Below, piece after piece: positions 2 to 14,802 of a stretch of 46,716 nucleotides of DNA. The translations under genes and the position numbers were made by a program. Within the stretch, counting starts at the first letter, position 1; each line of letters opens with the position of its first letter. Under the pieces are notes generated by a model that did not search any database, was not told the DNA's origin, and saw nothing but the letters and a program-made list of their open reading frames with translations. The stretch comes from Syntrophomonadaceae bacterium (GTDB lineage: Bacteria; Bacillota; Dethiobacteria; DTU022; UBA8154): positions 1 to 46,716 of the forward strand of contig SLRC01000002.1 of the NCBI GenBank assembly GCA_007131175.1. The letters are read 5' to 3'.

Positions 2-514
2 GGTTGTGAAATTATCGGCATCGTGGACCCGGTGGCATCCCAGATTCGACCTGAGACTTTCCGGGAGTTTGTGACTCCGAATTGTCAGGAAGCGAAACAG
101 GTGATTCATGATGCGGGCCGTATTTCCAGTTTATTTATCTGCGGTGATTCCACCAAAGTAATGGAAGAGCTCTGCCAGGTGGGAACACATAGTTTCGCTG
201 TTGATGAACAGATGAATATGAACTACATCCGTGAGCTGGGAGTCAAGTATGGACAGGGCTTTGCTGGAAATCTCAAGTTGACACTGGCCCTCTCCCTGGG
301 GATCATTGACCCCCGTGAGGATACAATAGTTAGTATGGCTGCAGGAGGGAACACTGGCTATACGCTGGCACCTGGCTGAGACATGCCCTTCGATGTTCCC
401 GTGGAGAACATAGACAAAGTATTGGAAGCCAAAGCATGGTTTGAGAAGTTTTACACCAAGTATCCCACGCATGTTAAACCGGCTTACCTGACCCTTGACG
501 ATATGAAAAAGTAA
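2..514 (+). CDS. Uroporphyrinogen decarboxylase/MtaA-CmuA family corrinoid methyltransferase, 5'-truncated by window edge; probable selenoprotein (UGA at 377-379)
   Basis: The frame is open from nt 2 (GCEIIGIVDPVASQI...LFICGD...AGNL). The ORF track stops at TGA 377-379, but the frame continues as GYTLAPG-U-DMPFDVPVENIDKVLEA... to TAA 512-514. This matches the family C-terminal motif (I/L)xPGC(D/E)xPxxxPxEN. The RBS of the next gene directly follows 514. Confidence 0.85.
390..414 (+). promoter_or_regulatory. Putative bacterial SECIS hairpin
   Basis: ATGTTC (393-398) pairs with GAACAT (406-411) around CCGTGGA, extended by C391-G413 and T390-A414. The G-containing apical loop starts about 20 nt after the UGA. 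Confidence 0.6.
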
Positions 515-525
515 GGGGTGATGAA

Positions 526-852
526 ATGAGTGAAAAATTAGTTGTTGATGTTCTGACCCTTGATGCCGTGCAGTGTGCGGCCTGCCAGTATATGTTTGAG
601 GCTATTTCCGCCCTGCCGGAAGATGTCAGGCAACATGTGGAGTTCAAGGAATGGACAATTAAAAACGCAGAGGGAATTGGCAAGTTCATGGAGCTGAACG
701 GAAAGGTTCTGCCCACAATTGCCATTAAGGGAGAACTGGTCTTTGAAAGTCTCATTCCAACCTTTGAAGAGCTTCTTGATGCTCTCGAAGCGAAAGCAAC
801 ATCGGAAGAATTAAAAACGGCAATTGCCAAGGCCCGGGCGGAAGCCAGTTAA
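526..852 (+). CDS. Thioredoxin-fold protein (CAAC)
   Basis: TLDAVQCAACQYM CxxC motif and LPTIAIKGELVF cis-Pro strand; RBS AAGGGGTG upstream. Confidence 0.8.
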   Translation: MSEKLVVDVLTLDAVQCAACQYMFEAISALPEDVRQHVEFKEWTIKNAEGIGKFMELNGKVLPTIAIKGELVFESLIPTFEELLDALEAKATSEELKTAIAKARAEAS

Positions 853-1792: not shown

Positions 1793-2603
1793 ATGGCGGA
1801 TTCTGTATAGCGGTGCCGGCGGCGGGCCTTATAACATGGCAGTGGATGAGGTTCTTTTAAACGGGGTTATCACCGGAAGTTCTCTGCCAACACTGCGTTT
1901 TTATAACTGGAAGAACGACTGCCTCTCCTTTGGTTTTTTACAAAGAGTGGATGAGCAGATTCGAAAGAACTGTGGTAAGCTTAATGTGGAGATGGTGCGG
2001 CGGCCCACCGGGGGTTATGCAGTTTTGCATGGCCGGGACCTTTGCTATAGTATTGTTGCACCGTTGGATGGTTCGCTGGCTTTTCTCCCGGAAGATGCGT
2101 CACGCCGGGTTGGGGCTGCCCTTGCCACAGGGCTCTGCCACCTTGGAGTGCCGGTTGCACTTTCCTTGCATGAAGAACGGCAAGATTATACAGTGGAAGA
2201 AATATCCTGTGCGGCAGCCGTTTCCCAAAATGAGCTAATTGTAAAAGGGAAAAAAATTGCCGGCAGTGCATCTTTGCGCCGTAAAGGATGTTATTTGCAA
2301 CACGGGTCCATATTTATGGAATATTGTGGAGAGCGCATTTCTGAGCTGCTGGGAAACGCCGCTGGCGATGCTTCCCTTAGCAGCAGGTCTGAAGGGTTAA
2401 GACAGGTATGGGATGAAAAGTTTTCTCTCATGGAGCTCATAACAGCACTTAGGGATGGCTTCAAAAGGCAGCTAAATGTAAATATGGTTCCGGCAGGACT
2501 GGGCGCTTTAGAAAGAGCAGCAACTTATGAATTAATGTACAAAAAATACACAACCCTTGATTATAGGAAGCAGCGGGGGAGGCTTTCACAGCAACATGCT
2601 TGA
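1782..2603 (+). CDS. Lipoate-protein ligase family, LipM-like octanoyltransferase
   Basis: NMAVDEVLL, PTLRFYNW, VRRPTGGYAVLH, GKKIAGSA (catalytic Lys), LQHGSI; Cys in ISCAAA. Confidence 0.85.
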   Translation: MLSEWRILYSGAGGGPYNMAVDEVLLNGVITGSSLPTLRFYNWKNDCLSFGFLQRVDEQIRKNCGKLNVEMVRRPTGGYAVLHGRDLCYSIVAPLDGSLAFLPEDASRRVGAALATGLCHLGVPVALSLHEERQDYTVEEISCAAAVSQNELIVKGKKIAGSASLRRKGCYLQHGSIFMEYCGERISELLGNAAGDASLSSRSEGLRQVWDEKFSLMELITALRDGFKRQLNVNMVPAGLGALERAATYELMYKKYTTLDYRKQRGRLSQQHA

Positions 2604-3975
2604 CCTCATAGTGATTGGCGGCGGTGCAGCAGGCTATGCAGCTGCGCTGCGAACAGCTCAGTTGGGTGGAAAAGTAATACTGGTGGAGAAAGAAAAACTG
2701 GGAGGTACCTGTTTGCACAGGGGATGTATTCCCTCCAAGGTGCTTTTTCAGCAAGCTGCAATTGTTGAGAATTACCGGACTGCTTTAAAGAGCGGGCTGT
2801 TTGAAGATGGGGGGCACATCAACCTTGAGGCCGTGGCCTGCCGCCAGGATGAAGTGATAGGGCGGCTCTTTCTTGGATTAGAGGATCTATTCAGAAAAAG
2901 AAGTATTCCGGTTATCAATGGTAGTGCCATGGTTGAGGGGCCGGGCCGTGTTCGGGTGGCAGACGATCAAGAAGTATACGAAACCAGGAACATACTCATT
3001 GCCGGAGGCTCACGGGAAAGGACCTTTCCATTTTCCGGTATGGAAGGGATCCGGGGGGCAGAGGAAAGCTTGAAACTACCCCAACAGCCATGCCGCGTAG
3101 CTGTGATCGGTGGCGGTAATACAGGCCTGGAATTAGCTGCTGCCTATGCCACCTTTGGTTTTAGCGTGACTGTTGTGGAAAAGGAAAAGGTCCTTCTTCC
3201 GGCACTGCAGGATGAAGAGATAAGTAAGTGGCTGGGGTTTTTACTTAAAAAGCGCGGTTTGAATATCCTCACCGGCACAAATATTAACAACATTGAGAAG
3301 ATAGTAAAAGACGTTAAAAGTGAACTTAAAATAATATATTCCCGTTCGGGAAAAGAGCATGTATTTTGGGTGGACCTGATCATTAACGCATCAGGACGGG
3401 AACCCTGTTTAGATAACTTTGCCCTTGACTGCCTTGGGGTTAAGCACACAGCTAATGGTATTAACGTAAACAAGCATATGGAAACAAAGGTTAAGGGAAT
3501 ATACGCAGCAGGTGATATTACCGGACCTCCCATGCTTGCCCACCGTGCCTATTTTGAGGGAATAACTGCGGCGGAAAATGTTATGGGAATGGATCGGAAG
3601 CTGGATTTGAAAGCTGTGCCTGCATGTCTGGCCGCAAGGCCCGGTGTAGCCTGGGTTGGTCTTACTGAAAAACAGGCCAGGGATGGAGGGCTAAACCCGC
3701 AGGTGGGCCGGTTTCCTTTCAGTGCCAGCGGTGCTGCCGTATTAAAAGGGGAGGAAGAAGGCTTTGTTAAGCTAATCGCCGGTGAGGACGGTATTATTCT
3801 GGGGCTGCAAGTGCTGGGTAACGCTGCGGAAGAGTTGATTATGGAAGGGACACTGGCTGTGCGCCACGGCCTCAGTGTAGAGCAGTTAAGGGAGACAATA
3901 CACCCCCACCCCACACTCCATGAATCGATTTGGGAAGTATGTCTTTCCCTGGAGGGCTTTCCTATGCATGGCTAA
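2596..3975 (+). CDS. lpdA: Dihydrolipoamide dehydrogenase
   Basis: DLIVIGGGAAG FAD motif, GGTCLHRGCIPSK redox disulfide, IYAAGD, HPHPTLHE. Start ATG 2596 overlaps the upstream stop. Confidence 0.93.
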   Translation: MLDLIVIGGGAAGYAAALRTAQLGGKVILVEKEKLGGTCLHRGCIPSKVLFQQAAIVENYRTALKSGLFEDGGHINLEAVACRQDEVIGRLFLGLEDLFRKRSIPVINGSAMVEGPGRVRVADDQEVYETRNILIAGGSRERTFPFSGMEGIRGAEESLKLPQQPCRVAVIGGGNTGLELAAAYATFGFSVTVVEKEKVLLPALQDEEISKWLGFLLKKRGLNILTGTNINNIEKIVKDVKSELKIIYSRSGKEHVFWVDLIINASGREPCLDNFALDCLGVKHTANGINVNKHMETKVKGIYAAGDITGPPMLAHRAYFEGITAAENVMGMDRKLDLKAVPACLAARPGVAWVGLTEKQARDGGLNPQVGRFPFSASGAAVLKGEEEGFVKLIAGEDGIILGLQVLGNAAEELIMEGTLAVRHGLSVEQLRETIHPHPTLHESIWEVCLSLEGFPMHG

Positions 3976-3999: not shown

Positions 4000-4527
4000 A
4001 TGATCAGAAACATTTCTTTTATGGGTGCAAATTTACAACTGGAGGACAGTTTGTTTTATCATACTTCCTTCGATTACTGGATTAGTATAAATCGGGACGA
4101 AGGTCTGGTTACTTTTGGCCTCACCCCTGCTTCTCATATTAAGGAAGGCGGTTACCATTCATTTGAATATTTTACTCAGGAGGGGGAGACTGTAGTGCAA
4201 GGCGAGCCCTTTGCCCTGGCGATCACGGGAAAACTAAAGTATCTGGACGTGGTGGCCAGTGGGGTTATTATTTCCCTGAACAGGGAATTGGAGCAAAGCA
4301 CAGCTCCTTGCCAAAATGCGGTAGGCGACAGTTGCTGGCTCGCTTCCATACGCACAGGCAAAGAGGTAGAAATGTTACCCGACCTCATTGAATTCAGCTA
4401 TTACGTTGAACTGCTCCGCATGTACGAAATGCATCGTACCCCTCCGGGGACAAAAGGAGCCGTATCACCCACCTGCCGGAGCGTGTACGAGTCTATCCGG
4501 AAGCAAAAAGGAGTAGAGGGAGGTTGA
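4000..4527 (+). CDS. Divergent glycine-cleavage H-like (lipoyl carrier) protein with C-terminal extension
   Basis: LFYHTSFDYWI..VTFGLT and GETVVQGEPFALAITGKLKYLDVVASGVIISLNREL align with the GcvH pattern G..V..G..F..vEsvK.......PvsG.V...N..L; flanked by lipoylation genes. Confidence 0.65.
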   Translation: MIRNISFMGANLQLEDSLFYHTSFDYWISINRDEGLVTFGLTPASHIKEGGYHSFEYFTQEGETVVQGEPFALAITGKLKYLDVVASGVIISLNRELEQSTAPCQNAVGDSCWLASIRTGKEVEMLPDLIEFSYYVELLRMYEMHRTPPGTKGAVSPTCRSVYESIRKQKGVEGG

Positions 4528-5478: not shown

Positions 5479-5820
5479 ATGACAGCCAGGGCAAAAGTAT
5501 TTGCGGGAGCTTGTGGTTTTACCAGCGTGGTAAAAGCTACCCGCATGGATAAAAAGCATGTAAGTGTTAAAATCATATCTGCATGCGAAATGCTGCGCAA
5601 AATGAATGATGATTTAAAAATATTGGATTGGCGGCGGGATCTTTTTTGTAATATCCGTAACTCGGTGGTTTATCGTTCTGCAGACAAGTACCTTATGCAC
5701 ACTGACTGCCCTGTTCCCAGTGCCATTGTCAAAGTAATCCAGATTGAGCTTGACGGCATGGTTCCAATGGATGTTAACATGAAATTTGAAAAGATAAACG
5801 AAGATAATGATGTTTTATGA
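5479..5820 (+). CDS. Conserved small Cys-containing protein (DUF6951-like)
   Basis: GACGF, SACE and HTDCPVPSAIVK motifs; RBS AAGGAG/AGGTGG. Family name is from memory. Confidence 0.6.
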   Translation: MTARAKVFAGACGFTSVVKATRMDKKHVSVKIISACEMLRKMNDDLKILDWRRDLFCNIRNSVVYRSADKYLMHTDCPVPSAIVKVIQIELDGMVPMDVNMKFEKINEDNDVL

Positions 5821-5853
5821 TTTTGAGGATATTTAAAAGGAGGCTTGTTGCTA

Positions 5854-6555
5854 ATGGTATTTGAGGCTGCCTTTTTATCTTCTTCCCTGGATAACGTGAA
5901 ATTGAAAAAAAGAATTTTGGAGCTAGGTGCTCACGAGGTTGGGATTGGCGATGTGAGTGTGGGCATTGCACCGGAGCTGTCACATATGCCACTGGCTATA
6001 TCCCTTGCCATCCAACATCCTTCTCCTCACTCTCAAAATAAAGGTGCTTACCCCTATGCCCACTTTTCCATGACAATTGACCGCCGTTTACTGGAAATTC
6101 AGCGTATTATAACCAGGGGGATACGCCGTCAGGGTTGGCGGGTTTTGCCCATCCCGCCTGATTCCTGCCGTCATGAATCCACTTTTATTTCGAGAATATT
6201 TAACCTGTTTCCTCACAAAACAGCCGCCACCTGTGCAGGCCTGGGTTGGATTGGTAAAAGCGGACTATTAATCAGTTACCGCTTCGGTCCACGTCTCAAC
6301 TGGGCCACAATTCTTACCAATGCCCCCCTGAAAGCAAGCAACAAACCGGTTAAAAAAAGTTTCTGTGACCAGTGTACCTGTTGCGTTGAAGCCTGCCCTG
6401 CCAAAGCTATTAAAAACAATAATTGGGAGTACACCACAAGTTATCGTACAATGATTGATGTTGATAAATGTGCCTCAGAACTGCAAAAAAACAGGAAACG
6501 TTACGGACAGTATGCCTGTGGTATTTGTATGCTGGTTTGTCCAAAGGGCCATTAG
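5854..6555 (+). CDS. QueG/epoxyqueuosine reductase-like 2x[4Fe-4S] protein
   Basis: HKTAATCAGLGWIGKSGLLI, GPR, CDQCTCCVEACP and C..C...CGICMLVCP. Confidence 0.8.
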   Translation: MVFEAAFLSSSLDNVKLKKRILELGAHEVGIGDVSVGIAPELSHMPLAISLAIQHPSPHSQNKGAYPYAHFSMTIDRRLLEIQRIITRGIRRQGWRVLPIPPDSCRHESTFISRIFNLFPHKTAATCAGLGWIGKSGLLISYRFGPRLNWATILTNAPLKASNKPVKKSFCDQCTCCVEACPAKAIKNNNWEYTTSYRTMIDVDKCASELQKNRKRYGQYACGICMLVCPKGH

Positions 6556-7319: not shown

Positions 7320-8279
7320 ATGAAGAGGAGTAAGGAGATAATCGGGGTGCCTGTTATCAGCATTTCAGCCGGAATACAGGTTGGGGTTGTTAAGGGGCTG
7401 GTTATAAATCCCCAGCAAAAAACTGTTGAATTTCTGCTGCTCAACGAAGAGGAAAACAGTAAAGGGATGAAAGGTATCCCCTTTCGCTACGCTGAAGGGG
7501 TTGGGGAATATGCCGTTACAGTGGAAAATGAAAGTGTGATGATGGAAATATCACGTATTGGAATCTTACAAGAACTACAGGAAAAAAATATTAACATTAT
7601 CGGCACTAAAGTTATTACCAGAAAAGGGAAGTACCTGGGCGATGCGAGCGAATATTCAATTGACATTGAGACTGGGATCCTTAAGGAAATTTATTACCAG
7701 GCCGATGATGAAAACGAATACAAAATTCCTGTTGAAAAAGTCATAACTCTGGGCACTGAAGTACTTGTAGTGGAAGTGATGGGGGCTGGTGAAGCCACTA
7801 CTTGTACTGAATCAGATCAAATAAATTTTAAAGGGGGAGATGAGAGATCATCCGGGATTCAGTGTATGGAACAAGTAATTTCTGAGCAACCTGATCCACC
7901 AAGGCCAGTAACGGAGCAAATTGAAGTTGTAACGCCTTTAGCTGGAATGTTTCAGGATATTCCAAATGAAAAGCCTGCTGCCCATGCTGTTAACCCTGCG
8001 GCCGAACAGCCTGATAAGGACACATTAAACCTCGAAGCAGGCCTCACTGAAAAGGAAATGCTGAGTTCCTCCACTCCCGGTGACCTGGATCCCGCAGACG
8101 TATTTATTCAGAGACAACGGCAGTTTTTGATCGGCAAAACCCTGCTTAAGGATCTTCAGTCAAAAGAAGGGGAGGTCATTGCCTGGGAAAATGAGTTGGT
8201 GACAGAGCACCTTTTTGACAAAGTTTACAAAATAGGAGCACAAAAGATAATGGAGCTGGCCATGTCTGTGAGGGAATAA
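7320..8279 (+). CDS. PRC-barrel domain protein
   Basis: Two PRC-barrel repeats (IIGVPVISISAGIQVGVV; IIGTKVITRKGKYLGD), an acidic linker and C-terminal FLIGKTLLKDL. Confidence 0.8.
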   Translation: MKRSKEIIGVPVISISAGIQVGVVKGLVINPQQKTVEFLLLNEEENSKGMKGIPFRYAEGVGEYAVTVENESVMMEISRIGILQELQEKNINIIGTKVITRKGKYLGDASEYSIDIETGILKEIYYQADDENEYKIPVEKVITLGTEVLVVEVMGAGEATTCTESDQINFKGGDERSSGIQCMEQVISEQPDPPRPVTEQIEVVTPLAGMFQDIPNEKPAAHAVNPAAEQPDKDTLNLEAGLTEKEMLSSSTPGDLDPADVFIQRQRQFLIGKTLLKDLQSKEGEVIAWENELVTEHLFDKVYKIGAQKIMELAMSVRE

Positions 8280-8548
8280 GATAAAAAAACGGAAAGAGAC
8301 CATTATGTACCCCTTTGCAGGTTTATCCTGTTAGGCCGGACTTTACTGTTGCACAATTGACCGATTTCAGTCAAATGACTGCTTTCGCCCGGACCGTTCT
8401 GAAAGGTATCGGTCAGGCCATTACATAATAATTTATTTGCCGCTGCGATGCTGAACGGACAATGTCTGGGACCGGATGAAATTCTTCCCGGTATTGGTGG
8501 TGGTGTCTGTAATACTTTAGGATTGGCAGTGGGGGGGGTGAGTGATTT

Positions 8549-10339
8549 TTGTTGACAAACGAAAGGGATGGCCAGATTGGTGTTGTTGAAGGAAAGATAA
8601 AAATCATTGCCCCCAAAGGGGGGGGTAAGGGGGCCGCACTATACCCTCCTGAAGAAGGGGGTGTAATTTATGTAAACGGGGTGGAACTGGAAAAACAAAT
8701 TACATGTGATTCCCAGGATATTGTTACCTTAGAACCCACCACCTATATGGAGGATGCCCGTTTGGAAGTAAAAATTTCCCCTGATGGACTTAATGCCCTG
8801 GCCGCTGTTTTTCCACGCAGAGTTGTTACATATCAACTAAAGGATACTCCCCTTTGTGCAAGCTTAAAGCCTCAATTGGAAAAAAGTGAGAAAGTGGAAA
8901 AACTGCTTACCCTGGAACAGGCTGAGCAGGAGTTGAGAAAACAGAACGTACTGCACGGGCTTAGCATGGCCGCCCTCAACGAGCTTGTTAAAACCGCTAA
9001 CGGCGAATTTAATACGGTCGCCTGGGGACTGGATAAACAGGAAGGCAAAAACGGACGCCTTGAGTTTGTTGTGAACCATGAAGTGGAAGTTATTAATTAT
9101 GAAGAGGAAAACACGAGGGCAGATTTTCGGGAAAAATATCGCTACCCGTCAGTAAAAAAAGGGGATGTGATCGCCATTCTCCACCCACCGGAGGAGGGAA
9201 AGCCCGGGCAGCGGGTAACGGGTGAAGTGATTGTTCCCAAACCTGTAAAAGCTGCCAAGGTCCGGTGTGGAGAAGGAACGGAGTTTGCCGATAATAATAA
9301 AGATATTGTTGCACTGAAAGACGGCCGTATGATTGTTGCGGGTTATCATATTAAGGTTGTTAACCTGCTTGTTCATAAGGGCGATGTGAACATGGAAAGT
9401 GGCAACATCCGCTTTAACGGGGATGTTCGTATTTTTGGAAATGTGACGGAAGGGATGATCGTGGAAGCCAGCGGTTCATTGATTGTAGATAACAATTGTT
9501 ATGGTGCTACCCTTAATGCCGGCAGCGGTATACACGTTGGCAAAAATGTGGTTAAGTGTGACGTACAGGGAGGAACATTTTTTGCCCTGCTGCGGGAAGT
9601 GCTGATTCTTGTCAATCAGCTCACGGAAGAGCTGGACGGGTTTATTGAAAACCTGAAGCAGATATTTAAGGGCCTGGCTGAGAAGGGGCAAAAGGTTGAT
9701 AATGCTTATCTGAAGCGTATTATCAAGATGCTTTTTGAAAAAAGCAACGGTTTGCGTGATACATTAATGCTCCTTGAGCGCCGCCTGGAGCAAAATAGCT
9801 TTTCTTACCTGGACCACACTAAAGAGGCCATAGAATCGCTGCAGGCCTTTTTTTCATTGGACATGGAAAAATGTAACCCCGACGAACTGATAAAGTCTTT
9901 AAAAATATTCAGAACCCTTTCCGAGGGATACCATGAAGAACTGAAAGAATTGCCTTTACTTAGTATTTCATATACACAGAACAGCAATATCCGGCACAGC
10001 GGCCATATTGAAATCACCGGGGCTGGGAGCTATTTCTCCAGTATGCATGCCGGGGGCGAAGTGAGGGTGCAGGGTGTTTTTCGCGGGGGCACTATTAAGG
10101 CGGAAAGCAATGTAAAAGTCAACGAATTTGTCTATATTTCCACTGCAGCAGAGAGTGGTGAAAAAAAGGACGCGATCAGGATTAAAGTTCCGGCACAATC
10201 TGCTATCCATTTCAACCTGGTCCATGAAGATACGACCGTCCAGGTTGGGAAGATGGTTTACCGTTTTGACAGGGAGTATTCAAAAATAAAAGTCAGCTTC
10301 GATCCTCAGGAAGGGTTGTTAAAATTAACCAACCTATAA
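8549..10339 (+). CDS. FapA/DUF342 family protein
   Basis: DFREKYRYPSVKKGDVIA, G..G..VTGE, GDVNMESGNIRFNGDVRIFGNV, a coiled-coil insert and beta-helix repeats. Confidence 0.85.
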   Translation: MLTNERDGQIGVVEGKIKIIAPKGGGKGAALYPPEEGGVIYVNGVELEKQITCDSQDIVTLEPTTYMEDARLEVKISPDGLNALAAVFPRRVVTYQLKDTPLCASLKPQLEKSEKVEKLLTLEQAEQELRKQNVLHGLSMAALNELVKTANGEFNTVAWGLDKQEGKNGRLEFVVNHEVEVINYEEENTRADFREKYRYPSVKKGDVIAILHPPEEGKPGQRVTGEVIVPKPVKAAKVRCGEGTEFADNNKDIVALKDGRMIVAGYHIKVVNLLVHKGDVNMESGNIRFNGDVRIFGNVTEGMIVEASGSLIVDNNCYGATLNAGSGIHVGKNVVKCDVQGGTFFALLREVLILVNQLTEELDGFIENLKQIFKGLAEKGQKVDNAYLKRIIKMLFEKSNGLRDTLMLLERRLEQNSFSYLDHTKEAIESLQAFFSLDMEKCNPDELIKSLKIFRTLSEGYHEELKELPLLSISYTQNSNIRHSGHIEITGAGSYFSSMHAGGEVRVQGVFRGGTIKAESNVKVNEFVYISTAAESGEKKDAIRIKVPAQSAIHFNLVHEDTTVQVGKMVYRFDREYSKIKVSFDPQEGLLKLTNL

Positions 10340-12043: not shown

Positions 12044-13957
12044 TTGGAAAGAAAAATATATCTGAACAATCTTCCCCTGGAACGGGCCAGAGAAATATTT
12101 TGGGATACCGCCCTTAAGCGGGAAATGGCGATGGTGGAATTGGACACACGTCTTGCTGCCGGAAGAGTAACAGCAGAGCCAGTATTTGCCCGCATTTCCT
12201 CGCCCCATTATCATGCCTCAGCAATGGATGGGATAGCAGTTAAAGCTGCAGATACTTTTGGGGCCGTACCCACTGCACCACGAAGGTTAATGCTCTCGCA
12301 AAATGCCTTCCCCGTAGATACAGGTGGTGCATTGCCTCCCCAGTGCGATGCTGTAGTGATGATCGAAAATGTTACTTTTCCCGATAGTAATAACCCCCAG
12401 CTAATTGAGATAAGGGAGGCGGTTGCGCCCTGGCAGCATGTCCGGTCTATTGGCGAGGATGTGGTTGCAGCGGAGATGATCATCCCCTCATATCATTTAA
12501 TCCGGCCTTTTGATTTGGGTGCACTGCTAAGCGGTGGAATATTTCAGCTTAAAGTTTTAAAAAAACCACTGGTCAGTCTTATCCCCACCGGTTCGGAAAT
12601 CATTCCTCCGGGAAGGATTCCTAACAGCGGGGAAATCATTGAATCCAATACATACACATCTGCCGCTGCCATAGAGCAGTGGGGTGGAGATGTTACCCGC
12701 CAGGCGGTAGTTTGGGATGAGGTCCATCTGTTGGAGAAGGCCGTCTCACGGGCTGTGCGTTTTAGCGATTTGGTCCTGATCAGTGCCGGTTCTTCCGCCG
12801 GTCGTCGTGACCATACTTTCCATGTTCTTGATCGGCTGGGAGAGGTCCTTGCACATGGAGTGGCCATACGTCCTGGTAAGCCGGTTGTTTTGGCAGTGGT
12901 TGACGGAGTGCCTGTTGTGGGCTTGCCCGGTTACCCGGTTGCTGCATATACAGTGCTCGAACTGTTCATCCGGCCCCTGTTATATGCCTGGCAGAAGCAA
13001 CCTATTCCTCCCCGGGAGGTGTTGCATGCCAGGAGTTCGCGCCGCATTCTCTCTTCCTTAAAAGAAGAAGAATACTTGCGCCTGAAAGTGGGAAAAGTGA
13101 ACAACAACTTTATTGCCACACCGCTTGCCCGGGGCGCCGGAGTGAGTATGTCCCTGGTCCGTGCCGATGGGCTGGCTTCCATACTCCAGGATCAGGAAGG
13201 AGTGGAGGCAGGTGATAATTTAGTCGTTAGCCTCTGGCGCACCCTCAGGGAGATTGAAAATACCATTGTTTGCCTGGGAAGTCACGATTTAAGCTTAGAT
13301 ATTCTTTACGACTTTTTAAAAAGGAGCGATTCGCCATATACTCTATCCTCCGCCCATGTGGGCAGTATGGGAGGAATCATGGCCCTGCAACGGGAAGAAA
13401 CCCACATTGCCGGACTCCATCTCCTTGATCCGGAAAGTGGCAGTTACAATATTCCCTACCTGAAGCGTTACCTTCCACAAAAAGAAATTCGCCTTGTGCA
13501 TCTTGCCCGCCGCGAACTTGGTTTGATTGTCAAACCTGGAAATCCCCGCAATATTAATAGCATTGCGGACTTGACCAGGGAGGGAATAATCATTGTTAAT
13601 CGCCAGAAAGGGGCTGGCACCAGGGTTTTTCTCGATTACTCTCTTGCAGGCGAAAATATCGACCCGAATAGAATTCAAGGTTATGACCGTGAAGAATTCA
13701 ACCATCTTGCCGTGTCGGCAGCAGTAAAAGCGGGGAACGCAGATGCGGGCCTGGGTATCAGGGCTGCCGCTTCCACCCTGGGGATGGATTTTATTCCCCT
13801 TGCCTGGGAAGATTACGATCTTGCCATTGCTGCTGCGTTTTATGAAACTGAACAATATAATACCCTGATTGAAGTCATTTCCTCCCCGGCCTTTCGGGCG
13901 GCGGTGGAGAAGATGGGCGGCTATAATCTAAAGGAAAGCGGGAAGATAGTAAAATAG
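12044..13957 (+). CDS. MoeA fused to a PBP/LysR-type substrate-binding domain
   Basis: SAMDGIAV, PTGSE, RPGKP, LPGYP, then GSHD...HVGSMGG...NRQKGAGTR domain; TTG 12044 behind GGAGG. Confidence 0.9.
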   Translation: MERKIYLNNLPLERAREIFWDTALKREMAMVELDTRLAAGRVTAEPVFARISSPHYHASAMDGIAVKAADTFGAVPTAPRRLMLSQNAFPVDTGGALPPQCDAVVMIENVTFPDSNNPQLIEIREAVAPWQHVRSIGEDVVAAEMIIPSYHLIRPFDLGALLSGGIFQLKVLKKPLVSLIPTGSEIIPPGRIPNSGEIIESNTYTSAAAIEQWGGDVTRQAVVWDEVHLLEKAVSRAVRFSDLVLISAGSSAGRRDHTFHVLDRLGEVLAHGVAIRPGKPVVLAVVDGVPVVGLPGYPVAAYTVLELFIRPLLYAWQKQPIPPREVLHARSSRRILSSLKEEEYLRLKVGKVNNNFIATPLARGAGVSMSLVRADGLASILQDQEGVEAGDNLVVSLWRTLREIENTIVCLGSHDLSLDILYDFLKRSDSPYTLSSAHVGSMGGIMALQREETHIAGLHLLDPESGSYNIPYLKRYLPQKEIRLVHLARRELGLIVKPGNPRNINSIADLTREGIIIVNRQKGAGTRVFLDYSLAGENIDPNRIQGYDREEFNHLAVSAAVKAGNADAGLGIRAAASTLGMDFIPLAWEDYDLAIAAAFYETEQYNTLIEVISSPAFRAAVEKMGGYNLKESGKIVK

Positions 13958-13988: not shown

Positions 13989-14504
13989 ATGGTACACGAG
14001 CATACCCAACCTGCAAACTTAAGGTTTGCGGTATTAACTGCCAGCGACCGCAGTTCATCGGGTGAGCGGGAAGATATTAGCGGTGTGGAAATAGGAAGAA
14101 TTTGCGGGGAAGCCGGTTGGGAACTGGTTTCTCATACAATTGTTGCCGATGACAAGGAAATGTTGAAAAAAGAAATGATCAGGCTGTGTGATATCTTGCA
14201 GGTAGGCCTGGTTATTACCACAGGGGGAACAGGCCTTGCTCCGCGTGACTTTACACCTGATGCCACTCTCGAAGTTATTGAAAAACTCGTTCCCGGCATG
14301 GCCGAAGCCATGCGCCTGGAAAGCCTTAAAAAAACACCCCACGCCATGCTTTCCCGCGCAATCTGCGGTATAAGGGGAAAAACACTTATTGTTAATCTTC
14401 CGGGCAGTCCAAAAGCCGTGCGTGAATGTCTTGAAGTGATTATTGCGGCTATTCCACATGCTGTTGCCCTGCTAGGTGGCGGTGTTTCCGATTGTGCAAG
14501 GTAA
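13989..14504 (+). CDS. mog: Molybdopterin adenylyltransferase MogA/MoaB
   Basis: VLTASDR, TTGGTGLAPRDFTPDAT, LSRA, NLPGSPKA. Confidence 0.9.
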   Translation: MVHEHTQPANLRFAVLTASDRSSSGEREDISGVEIGRICGEAGWELVSHTIVADDKEMLKKEMIRLCDILQVGLVITTGGTGLAPRDFTPDATLEVIEKLVPGMAEAMRLESLKKTPHAMLSRAICGIRGKTLIVNLPGSPKAVRECLEVIIAAIPHAVALLGGGVSDCAR

Positions 14505-14802
14505 GAATACCGGCACTTTCGCCACTGCAAGGGGCTGGTTTGCTGCCTGCTCAAAAAATACCACCCTGGTAAACAACTCCTTCTCTAACCTGGTATTTTA
14601 TTTTATACTGCTGGAAGGCTATTCCGAATACTGACCCTGTTTTAGATTGCTCTGTTTCCCAGTGTATATTTTTCTGTGCCATGGGAAAAATATGTTGTGC
14701 TCCAAACTTAGTAAAATTAAGTAATTTGGAGAAATAAAGGGAATTAATCTATTTAAACAGTGCTAACATCCAAATATGGTTTAAATTCACTTGTTGTTCG
14801 AT

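Follow-up and report, generated by a model that had tools for sequence, protein, structure and literature searches.

The window analyzed here is the whole 46,716-nucleotide (nt) contig SLRC01000002.1 (contig C188 below) of the Syntrophomonadaceae bacterium assembly GCA_007131175.1, a draft genome of 2.16 Mb in 219 contigs that is 77% complete. It opens inside a gene for a relative of uroporphyrinogen decarboxylase (UroD) and of the methyltransferase MtaA, the 3′ part of which occupies bases 2-514 of the forward strand and carries an in-frame TGA codon at 377-379, in the column of the last Cys of the P-G-C motif. This UGA is almost certainly decoded as selenocysteine (Sec), and on comparative grounds the gene belongs to a new selenoprotein family, a variant of the MtaA-type corrinoid methyltransferase scaffold. 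The overall explanation that we consider probable is a Sec-decoded UroD/MtaA relative with a Cys/Sec redox center, which would be re-reduced by a thioredoxin-like protein and would act within a corrinoid methyl-transfer pathway.

The in-frame UGA codon and its decoding

Read from base 2, the frame runs through GYTLAPG to the TGA and continues with DMPFDVPVENIDK; the whole stretch between the TGA and the TAA at 512-514 reads DMPFDVPVENIDKVLEAKAWFEKFYTKYPTHVKPAYLTLDDMKK and comprises 44 sense codons (380-511). The TAA is followed by AAGGGGTG and then by the ATG (526) of the next gene, so that the sequence is as the first-pass annotation had described it. The window start truncates the open reading frame (ORF), leaving 170 codons and the stop in the window, while the first ~185 codons lie on contig C57 (positions 14117-14788 of locus L028), where a good ribosome-binding site precedes the gene start. 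The end of C57 is an exact copy of window bases 1-121 (a 121-nt overlap inside the gene), and the contig of a relative (L029) has the same genes in the same order, unbroken. Because synteny is continuous in L029, the join of C57 and the window is supported, and their boundary looks, by sequence, like an assembly break and not a biological end; the two gene pieces were nevertheless kept unjoined in the analysis. Together they encode ~354 amino acids (aa), within the range of the orthologues (344-357 aa), and both halves score above the gathering threshold of the Pfam family PF01208 (URO-D; 23.9 bits), with 66.8 bits (E 2e-18) for the window part and 101.5 bits (E 6e-29) for the C57 part, which places the product in the UroD superfamily.

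Orthologues were searched in six frames in 60 relatives and were found in four of them (74-87% identity), all with a single TGA at the same column and with 44-47 conserved codons after it. In a wider scan, two conserved peptides were compared with one genome per species (185,579 species), which gave 50 loci, the four first-found orthologues included, and hence 51 family members together with the window. The codon is TGA in 49 of these 51 and Cys in the other two (L064 and L074); 47 of the 50 loci hold intact genes with TGA at the P-G-U-D column, and one more, L076, has the TGA in a broken frame. The holders belong to Bacillota (Dethiobacter, Peptococcaceae, and Pelotomaculum propionicicum MGP, L048) and Desulfobacterota (Desulfatitalea alkaliphila M08but, L041, as well as Desulfosarcina, Desulfobacula, Syntrophobacteraceae, and the Olavius Delta-1 symbiont). 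Two additional Cys forms with a full tail were present in the protein database (P0017, P0121), and all seven distant paralogues have Cys at the TGA column. In the L076 copy (8001-9100, a Desulfosarcina metagenome-assembled genome) an internal frame break or deletion affects codons ~58-170, with the TGA, the hairpin region and the partner gene kept, so that this copy is either a pseudogene or an assembly fault.

The codons behind the TGA (380-511 in the window) correspond to the C-terminal helix region of the barrel. Codon alignments were made after removal of L076, L074 and the partial genes L073 and L078 (46 sequences remaining), and for the counts of nonsynonymous versus synonymous polymorphism (pN/pS) the Cys form L064 was excluded as well (45 sequences). 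With a pN/pS of 0.25 for codons +1 to +32 and 0.28 for codons +12 to +32, vs. 0.22 upstream, the post-TGA codons are under purifying selection and are constrained like the rest of the gene. The closest solved structure, MtaA of Methanosarcina mazei (PDB 4AY7/4AY8; profile E 1e-31, 332 aligned positions), aligns up to its residue 347/348, and a product ending at the UGA would therefore miss the last part of the barrel.

The machinery for Sec insertion, which the first-pass annotation had proposed to look for, was found in the same genome: a tRNA-Sec (C53:1100-1195) and the genes selA (607 bits), selB (377 bits) and selD (379 bits), the scores of the three genes all exceeding their cut-offs. The selD gene (C72:7556-8482) has one in-frame TGA itself, and since this is so, it encodes a Sec-type selenophosphate synthetase. 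As selA was detected in 60 of 61 genomes (the 60 relatives plus this genome, G000), all five holders of the gene among them, the clade uses Sec generally. In the genome of the window, TGA ends 204 of 908 long frames, which means that it is not reassigned and serves as an ordinary stop elsewhere.

A hairpin resembling a selenocysteine insertion sequence (SECIS) lies behind the UGA at 393-411 of the forward strand. Its 6-bp stem is formed by ATGTTC (393-398) and GAACAT (406-411) around the loop CCGTGGA, in which G401, U402, G403 and G404 are found and an additional C399-G404 pair could form given a bulged A405. The stem begins 13 nt past the UGA and the loop at ~20 nt (20-21 nt across sequences), so that the earlier placement of the hairpin about 20 nt after the codon holds for the start of the loop and not for that of the stem. 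The bacterial SECIS consensus, which Zhang and Gladyshev are said to have described in 2005, reportedly has G/U in an apical loop situated 16-37 nt after the UGA. Across the family, a 7-position stem with at least six pairs was present in all 48 aligned sequences, in two registers. The first (37 sequences, mostly Desulfobacterota) reads AUGUUCC-GGU-GGAACAU; the second (11 sequences, i.e., the window with its Bacillota kin and the Desulfobacterota loci L034-L036) reads A[U/C]GUUC(C)-loop-(G)A-GAAC[A/G]U, its 3′ arm being moved by two bases because the peptide has E-N instead of E-H. Within the second register, the second pair is C-G in ten sequences and U-A in one, the window, which is a double change at pair 394/410. 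The loops are GGU (26), GGC (7), CGUG (8) and others. Synonymous variation reaches its minimum for the whole gene at the hairpin: all eight of the lowest 11-codon segments begin within positions -4 to +3 relative to the Sec codon, with a normalized entropy of 0.61 vs. 0.83 elsewhere (one-sided Mann-Whitney p 0.007), and Val +6 is encoded by GTT in 45 of 45 sequences. The Cys form L064 has the peptide D-T-P-E-D-H and has lost the hairpin.

The tests of this element were mixed, and several results count against it. The hairpin is small, and the 42 nt behind the UGA did not fold with clearly lower energy than synonymous recodings (mean z -1.1, not significant): 118 of 200 recodings of the window copy folded equally well or better, and 14 of the 48 sequences had no more than 10 of 200 controls as stable. 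Recoding is also a weak control for the pairing, as 11,422 of 24,000 synonymous recodings (48%) retained at least six of the seven pairs, from which it follows that the peptide D-V-P-x-E-[HN] largely dictates the stem. A scan of positions 330-520 with Rfam gave no SECIS family and one chance-level snoRNA match (E 3.9). Taken together, it is plausible that the hairpin at 393-411 is the SECIS, and it is chiefly the comparative evidence that carries the argument for Sec.

That the TGA might be a true stop is suggested by the gene callers, which end the protein here (118 of the best 120 database matches have 311 aa), by the unexceptional thermodynamics of the hairpin, and by an ATG that follows one codon past the TGA in the window. 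The product would then have 311 aa (~310 aa here), and the downstream 43 codons from the ATG at 383 would either form a separate ORF or stay untranslated. We regard this as very improbable: the tail is constrained as strongly as the gene body (0.25 vs. 0.22), in the alignment it covers the final helix region of MtaA, it is contiguous with the rest of the protein in the Cys forms, and a conserved stop placed exactly at the catalytic-Cys column across two phyla would lack an explanation. A split gene with a restart at ATG 383 was rejected, as this codon is not ATG in four of 48 sequences (CTG, CTC, ATT and ATC in L044, L047, L071 and L072). We see a negligible prospect that the TGA arose through faulty sequencing or assembly or through a recent nonsense mutation, or that it is reassigned throughout the genome (e.g., to Trp or Gly); the incomplete, fragmented draft and the division of the gene between two contigs could speak for this. 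Since 49 independent assemblies share the TGA, a sequencing error is ruled out, and reassignment was rejected on the 204 frames that end in TGA and on the residue aligned in relatives, which is Cys and not Trp or Gly.

The claim that automated annotation truncates the protein was borne out. The 118 entries of 311 aa, found among the best 120 database matches to the Desulfatitalea orthologue, end at the UGA; where an entry bears a name, it is "uroporphyrinogen decarboxylase family protein", "uroporphyrinogen decarboxylase", "MtaA/CmuA family methyltransferase" or "hypothetical protein". Reading the codon as Sec would add to the annotation a widespread selenoprotein family with members in no fewer than 49 genomes at species level from Desulfobacterota and Bacillota. 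Among the annotations affected are those of sulfate reducers, syntrophs and Bacillota of the subsurface; the Olavius Delta-1 symbiont, a frequent selenoproteome benchmark, is one of the organisms concerned. Among cultured organisms, Desulfatitalea alkaliphila and Pelotomaculum propionicicum hold the gene, and Mariniphaga sediminis has a fused form of the Cys type.

Our full-text literature searches gave no report of a Sec-containing UroD/MtaA-type protein; an earlier listing in other selenoprotein catalogues is possible. The main text and table of a 2026 review of the prokaryotic selenoproteome (PMC13188914) do not contain the terms uroporphyrinogen, UroD or MtaA, and all seven uses of "methyltransferase" there refer to other families. 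The same terms are missing from the main text of the BSepDB paper, whose family list is placed in its supplement, and the passages found in the paper on the Olavius symbiont selenoproteome (PMC1976440) mention no such family.

Family placement and the altered zinc site

Alignment with the MtaA structure (4AY7) confirmed that the UGA takes the place of the conserved Cys in the P-G-C motif of a UroD/MtaA-like protein, with "aPGCg" of MtaA falling on "aPGUd". Further upstream, "lHiCG" of MtaA falls on "fFiCG" ("vlhicG" on "ssfficG"), and the counterpart of the MtaA H-I-C motif is F-I-C at 134-142 of the forward strand, within L-F-I-C-G-D at 131-148 (L-F-I-C at 131-142), as had been noticed from the window's sequence earlier. 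The zinc-ligand His is thus replaced by Phe and the Cys is retained. Every one of the 46 aligned members has the Cys of F-I-C, at least 90% have Phe where MtaA has His (L032 has Tyr), and the position of the last Cys, in P-G-C, is Sec in 45 and Cys in one. UroD-superfamily S-methyltransferases coordinate Zn through His-Cys-Cys, according to passages of Kountz and Balskus (PMC10418091); this coordination sphere was not present in any of the 46 aligned members, which have Phe/Tyr-Cys-Sec (or Cys). In addition, four of four inspected fused forms from Bacteroidota have F-F-V-C and P-G-C, and as the Cys and fused forms share the loss of His, this loss is a feature of the family and not of the Sec forms alone. 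His92, His146, Glu71 and Asp193 are invariant in the family.

The protein stands apart from the curated families of the superfamily. Membership in MtaA/CmuA (TIGR01463) was rejected for full-length orthologues, which scored 127.7 and 137 bits vs. a cut-off of 235.4, and so were the MtaA equivalog (102-109 vs. 400 bits), the MtbA equivalog (84-88 vs. 600 bits) and the uroporphyrinogen decarboxylase HemE (TIGR01464; 53-55 vs. 302.95 bits). No selenoprotein-specific model of NCBIfam (release 20.0) matched the protein. The canonical MtaA/CmuA paralogue encoded at the same locus (L028 10437-11492), on the other hand, has H-I-C as well as P-G-C and passes TIGR01463 with 241.6 bits. What the family has in common with MtaA/MtbA/MtsA-type methylcobamide:thiol methyltransferases is the UroD TIM barrel, the x-I-C-G and P-G-C motifs in register, and the genomic company of a corrinoid protein and a RACo-type activase; it differs from them in the replacement of His by Phe/Tyr and of the last Cys by Sec, in scores far under the curated cut-offs, and in an obligate thioredoxin-like partner. 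We know of no such partner for MtaA.

Another group to be compared are the Mlp proteins, which, in the parts of Kountz and Balskus 2023 (PMC10418091) that describe them, are MtaA-like proteins of non-methanogens, encoded in type 1 mlp gene clusters together with a corrinoid protein and a RACE protein. Their hosts are given there as anaerobes that mostly use selenium, and the Mlps are proposed to be S-/Se-methyl transferases. They are set apart from the present family by that description, which presents them with His-Cys-Cys and not as selenoproteins, and by their clusters, which have no tetrahydrofolate methyltransferase, whereas an MtrH-like gene accompanies the present gene in 15 of the 50 loci. 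A literature search for a corrinoid methanethiol/dimethyl sulfide pathway in sulfate reducers gave papers on methanogens only.

The thioredoxin-like partner and a candidate redox mechanism

The gene directly downstream (526-852, forward strand) encodes a thioredoxin-like protein with the invariant motif T-L-D-x-x-Q-C-A-A-C. A partner of this kind is encoded 14-180 nt downstream in 48 of the 50 loci (47 with C-A-A-C and one, fused, with C-A-P-C); the exceptions are L071, whose contig ends 25 nt past the gene, and L072, which is without a partner. In Bacteroidota, a Cys-form UroD-like domain is fused to a thioredoxin-like domain, and the best 120 matches to the L074 protein were all fusions of ~538 aa (PF01208 plus PF13192), one of them from the cultured Mariniphaga sediminis. 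These fused forms (L074 8001-9614; P0122-P0241), which come from Cyclobacteriaceae, Prolixibacteraceae and Mariniphaga sediminis, have a thioredoxin-like domain with C-A-P-C as well as one more domain at the C-terminus, and some Bacteroidota fusions are annotated as "thioredoxin family protein". The partner and two upstream UxxC proteins encoded on C57 weakly resemble the model for HUIPC thioredoxin-like (seleno)proteins, NF047660 (E 3e-9, 1e-6 and 2e-4), and differ from it in their scores (22-37 bits vs. a cut-off of 105) and in their motifs, which are QCAAC, QUTPC and RUVSC.

The wider neighborhood was surveyed up to 8 kb on each side; the counts are lower bounds, as many contigs were shorter, and each cluster of neighbors was named from one scanned representative. 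Of the corrinoid methyl-transfer genes, those for a corrinoid protein (26 of the 50 loci), RACo (24), canonical MtaA (21) and MtrH (15) were recorded; other frequent neighbors were a COG0523 CobW/ZigA-like GTPase (34), DUF6951 (24), an MTH895-type thioredoxin-like protein (24) and a thioredoxin-reductase-like flavoprotein (21). GcvH-like proteins (9-11 loci), DGC-domain proteins (8), dihydrolipoyl dehydrogenase (Lpd; 7) and lipoyl synthase (LipA; 6) were less frequent. Two unrelated NAD(P)H-disulfide reductase modules thus stand beside the gene in different lineages.

In the mechanism that we propose, the UGA would be decoded by SelB and tRNA-Sec under the direction of the hairpin at 393-411, and Sec would occupy the place of the last Cys of the MtaA-type His-Cys-Cys zinc site in a TIM-barrel protein of ~354 aa. 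Because the His of this site is Phe/Tyr in the family, we infer that no classical Zn-thiolate center is formed. The Cys of F-I-C and the Sec of P-G-U would instead act as a soft nucleophile and redox dyad, and a selenenylsulfide formed at each turnover, or by oxidation, would be reduced by the downstream C-A-A-C thioredoxin-like protein. Electrons would come from NAD(P)H by one of two routes, i.e., through a lipoyl-GcvH-like/dihydrolipoyl dehydrogenase system and UxxC thioredoxin-like selenoproteins in this genome and its Bacillota kin, or through a thioredoxin-reductase-like flavoprotein in Desulfobacterota. The enzyme would work within a corrinoid methyl-transfer route that comprises the corrinoid proteins, RACo, the canonical Zn-type MtaA paralogue and an MtrH-like protein leading to tetrahydrofolate, and its methyl donor or acceptor would be expected to need reduction or selenol chemistry; candidate substrates are methyl sulfoxides, methyl disulfides and methylated Se, As or Hg species. 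Of these elements, the Sec coding, the placement in the superfamily, the altered motifs and the genomic association are shown by the sequences, and the redox dyad, the route of the electrons and the part in methyl transfer are inferred.

The redox-active center is suggested by the adjacency (by homology) of the remnants of the zinc site, by the obligate or fused CxxC partner, and by the two reductase systems. On the other side, the proximity of the Cys and the Sec is drawn from the homology of their positions to the Zn ligands, and a metal site with Sec as ligand is possible in view of the COG0523 GTPase in 34 of the 50 loci and of the invariant His92 and His146. We regard the Cys/Sec redox dyad as the best-supported of the mechanisms considered and, in its probability, as an evenly balanced proposal. 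The earlier suggestion of a nucleophilic or redox center in place of a classical Zn site has gained from the replacement of His by Phe/Tyr, from the C-A-A-C partner and from the reductase modules in the gene context, and it is retained in this conditional form.

The strongest competing explanation accepts a genuine selenoprotein and takes it for a classical metal-dependent methyltransferase, in which Sec would ligate Zn or another soft metal and another residue would replace the lost His. The role of the metal would then be to activate a substrate thiol or selenol, so that a methyl group can move to or from the corrinoid protein, and the thioredoxin-like protein and the COG0523 GTPase would help to insert the metal or to protect the site and would have no part in turnover. 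In [NiFeSe] hydrogenase and in formate dehydrogenase, Sec does bind a metal, the remainder of the MtaA scaffold and the corrinoid context are retained, and any of the invariant residues His92, His146, Glu71 and Asp193 could stand in for the missing ligand; the frequency of the GTPase gene fits this explanation as well. However, the exchange of His for Phe/Tyr extends over the whole family, including the Cys forms and the fused forms of Bacteroidota, the thioredoxin-like partner is obligate, being encoded next to the enzyme in 48 of 50 loci or forming one protein with it, two unrelated reductase modules suggest electron flow over metal delivery, and the GTPase may just as well act for the canonical Zn-type MtaA paralogue or in the handling of cobalt. 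We therefore consider a metal-dependent enzyme unlikely. As a side observation, this GTPase gene is the commonest neighbor after that of the thioredoxin-like partner (e.g., L047 10951-12060), and it was not found beside the gene in the window.

The proposed Cys/Sec dyad has counterparts in other systems. In the Grd selenoproteins, a Sec/Cys pair cycles through a selenenylsulfide, which is re-reduced by the thioredoxin system. For glycine, betaine and sarcosine reductase, passages of a published account (PMC6778437) give the motifs CxxU in GrdA and UxxC in GrdB/H and describe the enzymes as thioredoxin-dependent. The likeness lies in the Sec/Cys logic, the involvement of thioredoxin and the setting in anaerobic C1/C2 metabolism, and it is an analogy of logic only, as the folds are unrelated and the Grd proteins have no corrinoid. 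A relay is known from Mycobacterium tuberculosis, in which electrons pass from NADH to Lpd, to a lipoyl carrier, to the thioredoxin-like AhpD and finally to AhpC. The set of Lpd, GcvH-like, LipA, LplA and thioredoxin-like genes in the window would follow the same relay logic; the terminal acceptor is a peroxiredoxin in M. tuberculosis and would be a UroD-fold protein here, where the relay is suggested by the gene neighborhood alone.

If the proposal is true, the protein would be, to our knowledge, the first MtaA-type relative in which a Cys/Sec pair with its own thioredoxin-like reductant replaces His-Cys-Cys, and it would suggest that the organisms dominant in anoxic sediments have a methyl-transfer chemistry tied to thiol/selenol redox. 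A more specific version, which we put forward tentatively and hold to be rather doubtful, is a zinc-independent, Sec-dependent corrinoid enzyme that couples methyl transfer to selenenylsulfide redox, e.g., a reductive demethylation of the candidate substrates named above, as methyl compounds that are oxidized or bound to a metal or metalloid, in which the methyl group would pass via the corrinoid and MtrH to tetrahydrofolate and reducing power would arrive through the NAD(P)H/thioredoxin-like relay. Such a reaction type, if true, would have no known counterpart in the UroD/MtaA superfamily.

Neighboring genes and further in-frame TGA codons

In the window, the gene is followed by the Q-C-A-A-C thioredoxin-like protein, lipoyl synthase, a lipoate-protein ligase-like protein, dihydrolipoyl dehydrogenase, a second GcvH-related protein, an MIP channel and DUF6951. 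All of the following are on the forward strand. The lipoyl synthase (824-1792, start codon uncertain; NF004019, 345.9 bits vs. a cut-off of 203; 6 of 50 loci) would belong to a reductant module based on lipoyl groups, in the form that the locus takes in Bacillota. The lipoate-protein ligase-like gene (1782-2603) matches PF21948 (LplA-B_cat, E 1e-24) and occurs in three of the 50 loci, and the dihydrolipoyl dehydrogenase (2557-3975, start codon uncertain; 7 of 50 loci) scores 428.5 bits against TIGR01350 (cut-off 408.8). The GcvH-related, lipoyl-carrier-like protein (4000-4527; 9 of 50 loci) reaches 109 bits with NF045810, below the cut-off of 150, and matches PF01597 with E 7e-4. DUF6951 (5479-5820; PF22263, E 3e-29) is a small Cys-rich protein, whose cluster is the one recorded above in 24 of 50 loci. 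The ORF at 5845-6555 has a C-terminal 4Fe-4S dicluster domain (Fer4_16) and, among the 50 loci, is common to L029 only.

On C57, the order is a triple helix-turn-helix regulator, two corrinoid proteins, a RACo-type reductive activase, an MtrH-family methyltransferase, the canonical MtaA, two DGC-domain proteins, a GcvH-related protein, two small TGA-containing thioredoxin-like ORFs and then the selenoprotein gene. The GcvH-related protein of C57 (L028 12870-13349) scores 71 bits with NF045810 (cut-off 150); on reading, it is the only one of the two copies with the canonical E-x-x-K-A lipoyl-lysine context, which the copy in the window is without.

The first of the two thioredoxin-like ORFs (L028 ~13351-13659) has its in-frame TGA in N-D-F-V-Q-U-T-P-C, and this TGA is retained in all six Bacillota relatives that have the gene (L029-L033 and L039); the HUIPC model gives it 28 bits vs. 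the cut-off of 105. The second (L028 13680-13982) has an in-frame TGA in F-V-R-U-V-S-C and was found with TGA only here and in L029. One of the DGC-domain proteins (PF08859; L028 12247-12837) likewise carries an in-frame TGA, in T-F-V-U-D-C, followed by 90 conserved codons; this TGA is shared by L029, the corresponding residue being Cys in four relatives and Ala in L039. It is possible that the DGC-domain protein is a selenoprotein too, and if it is, there would be four selenoprotein genes in one operon.

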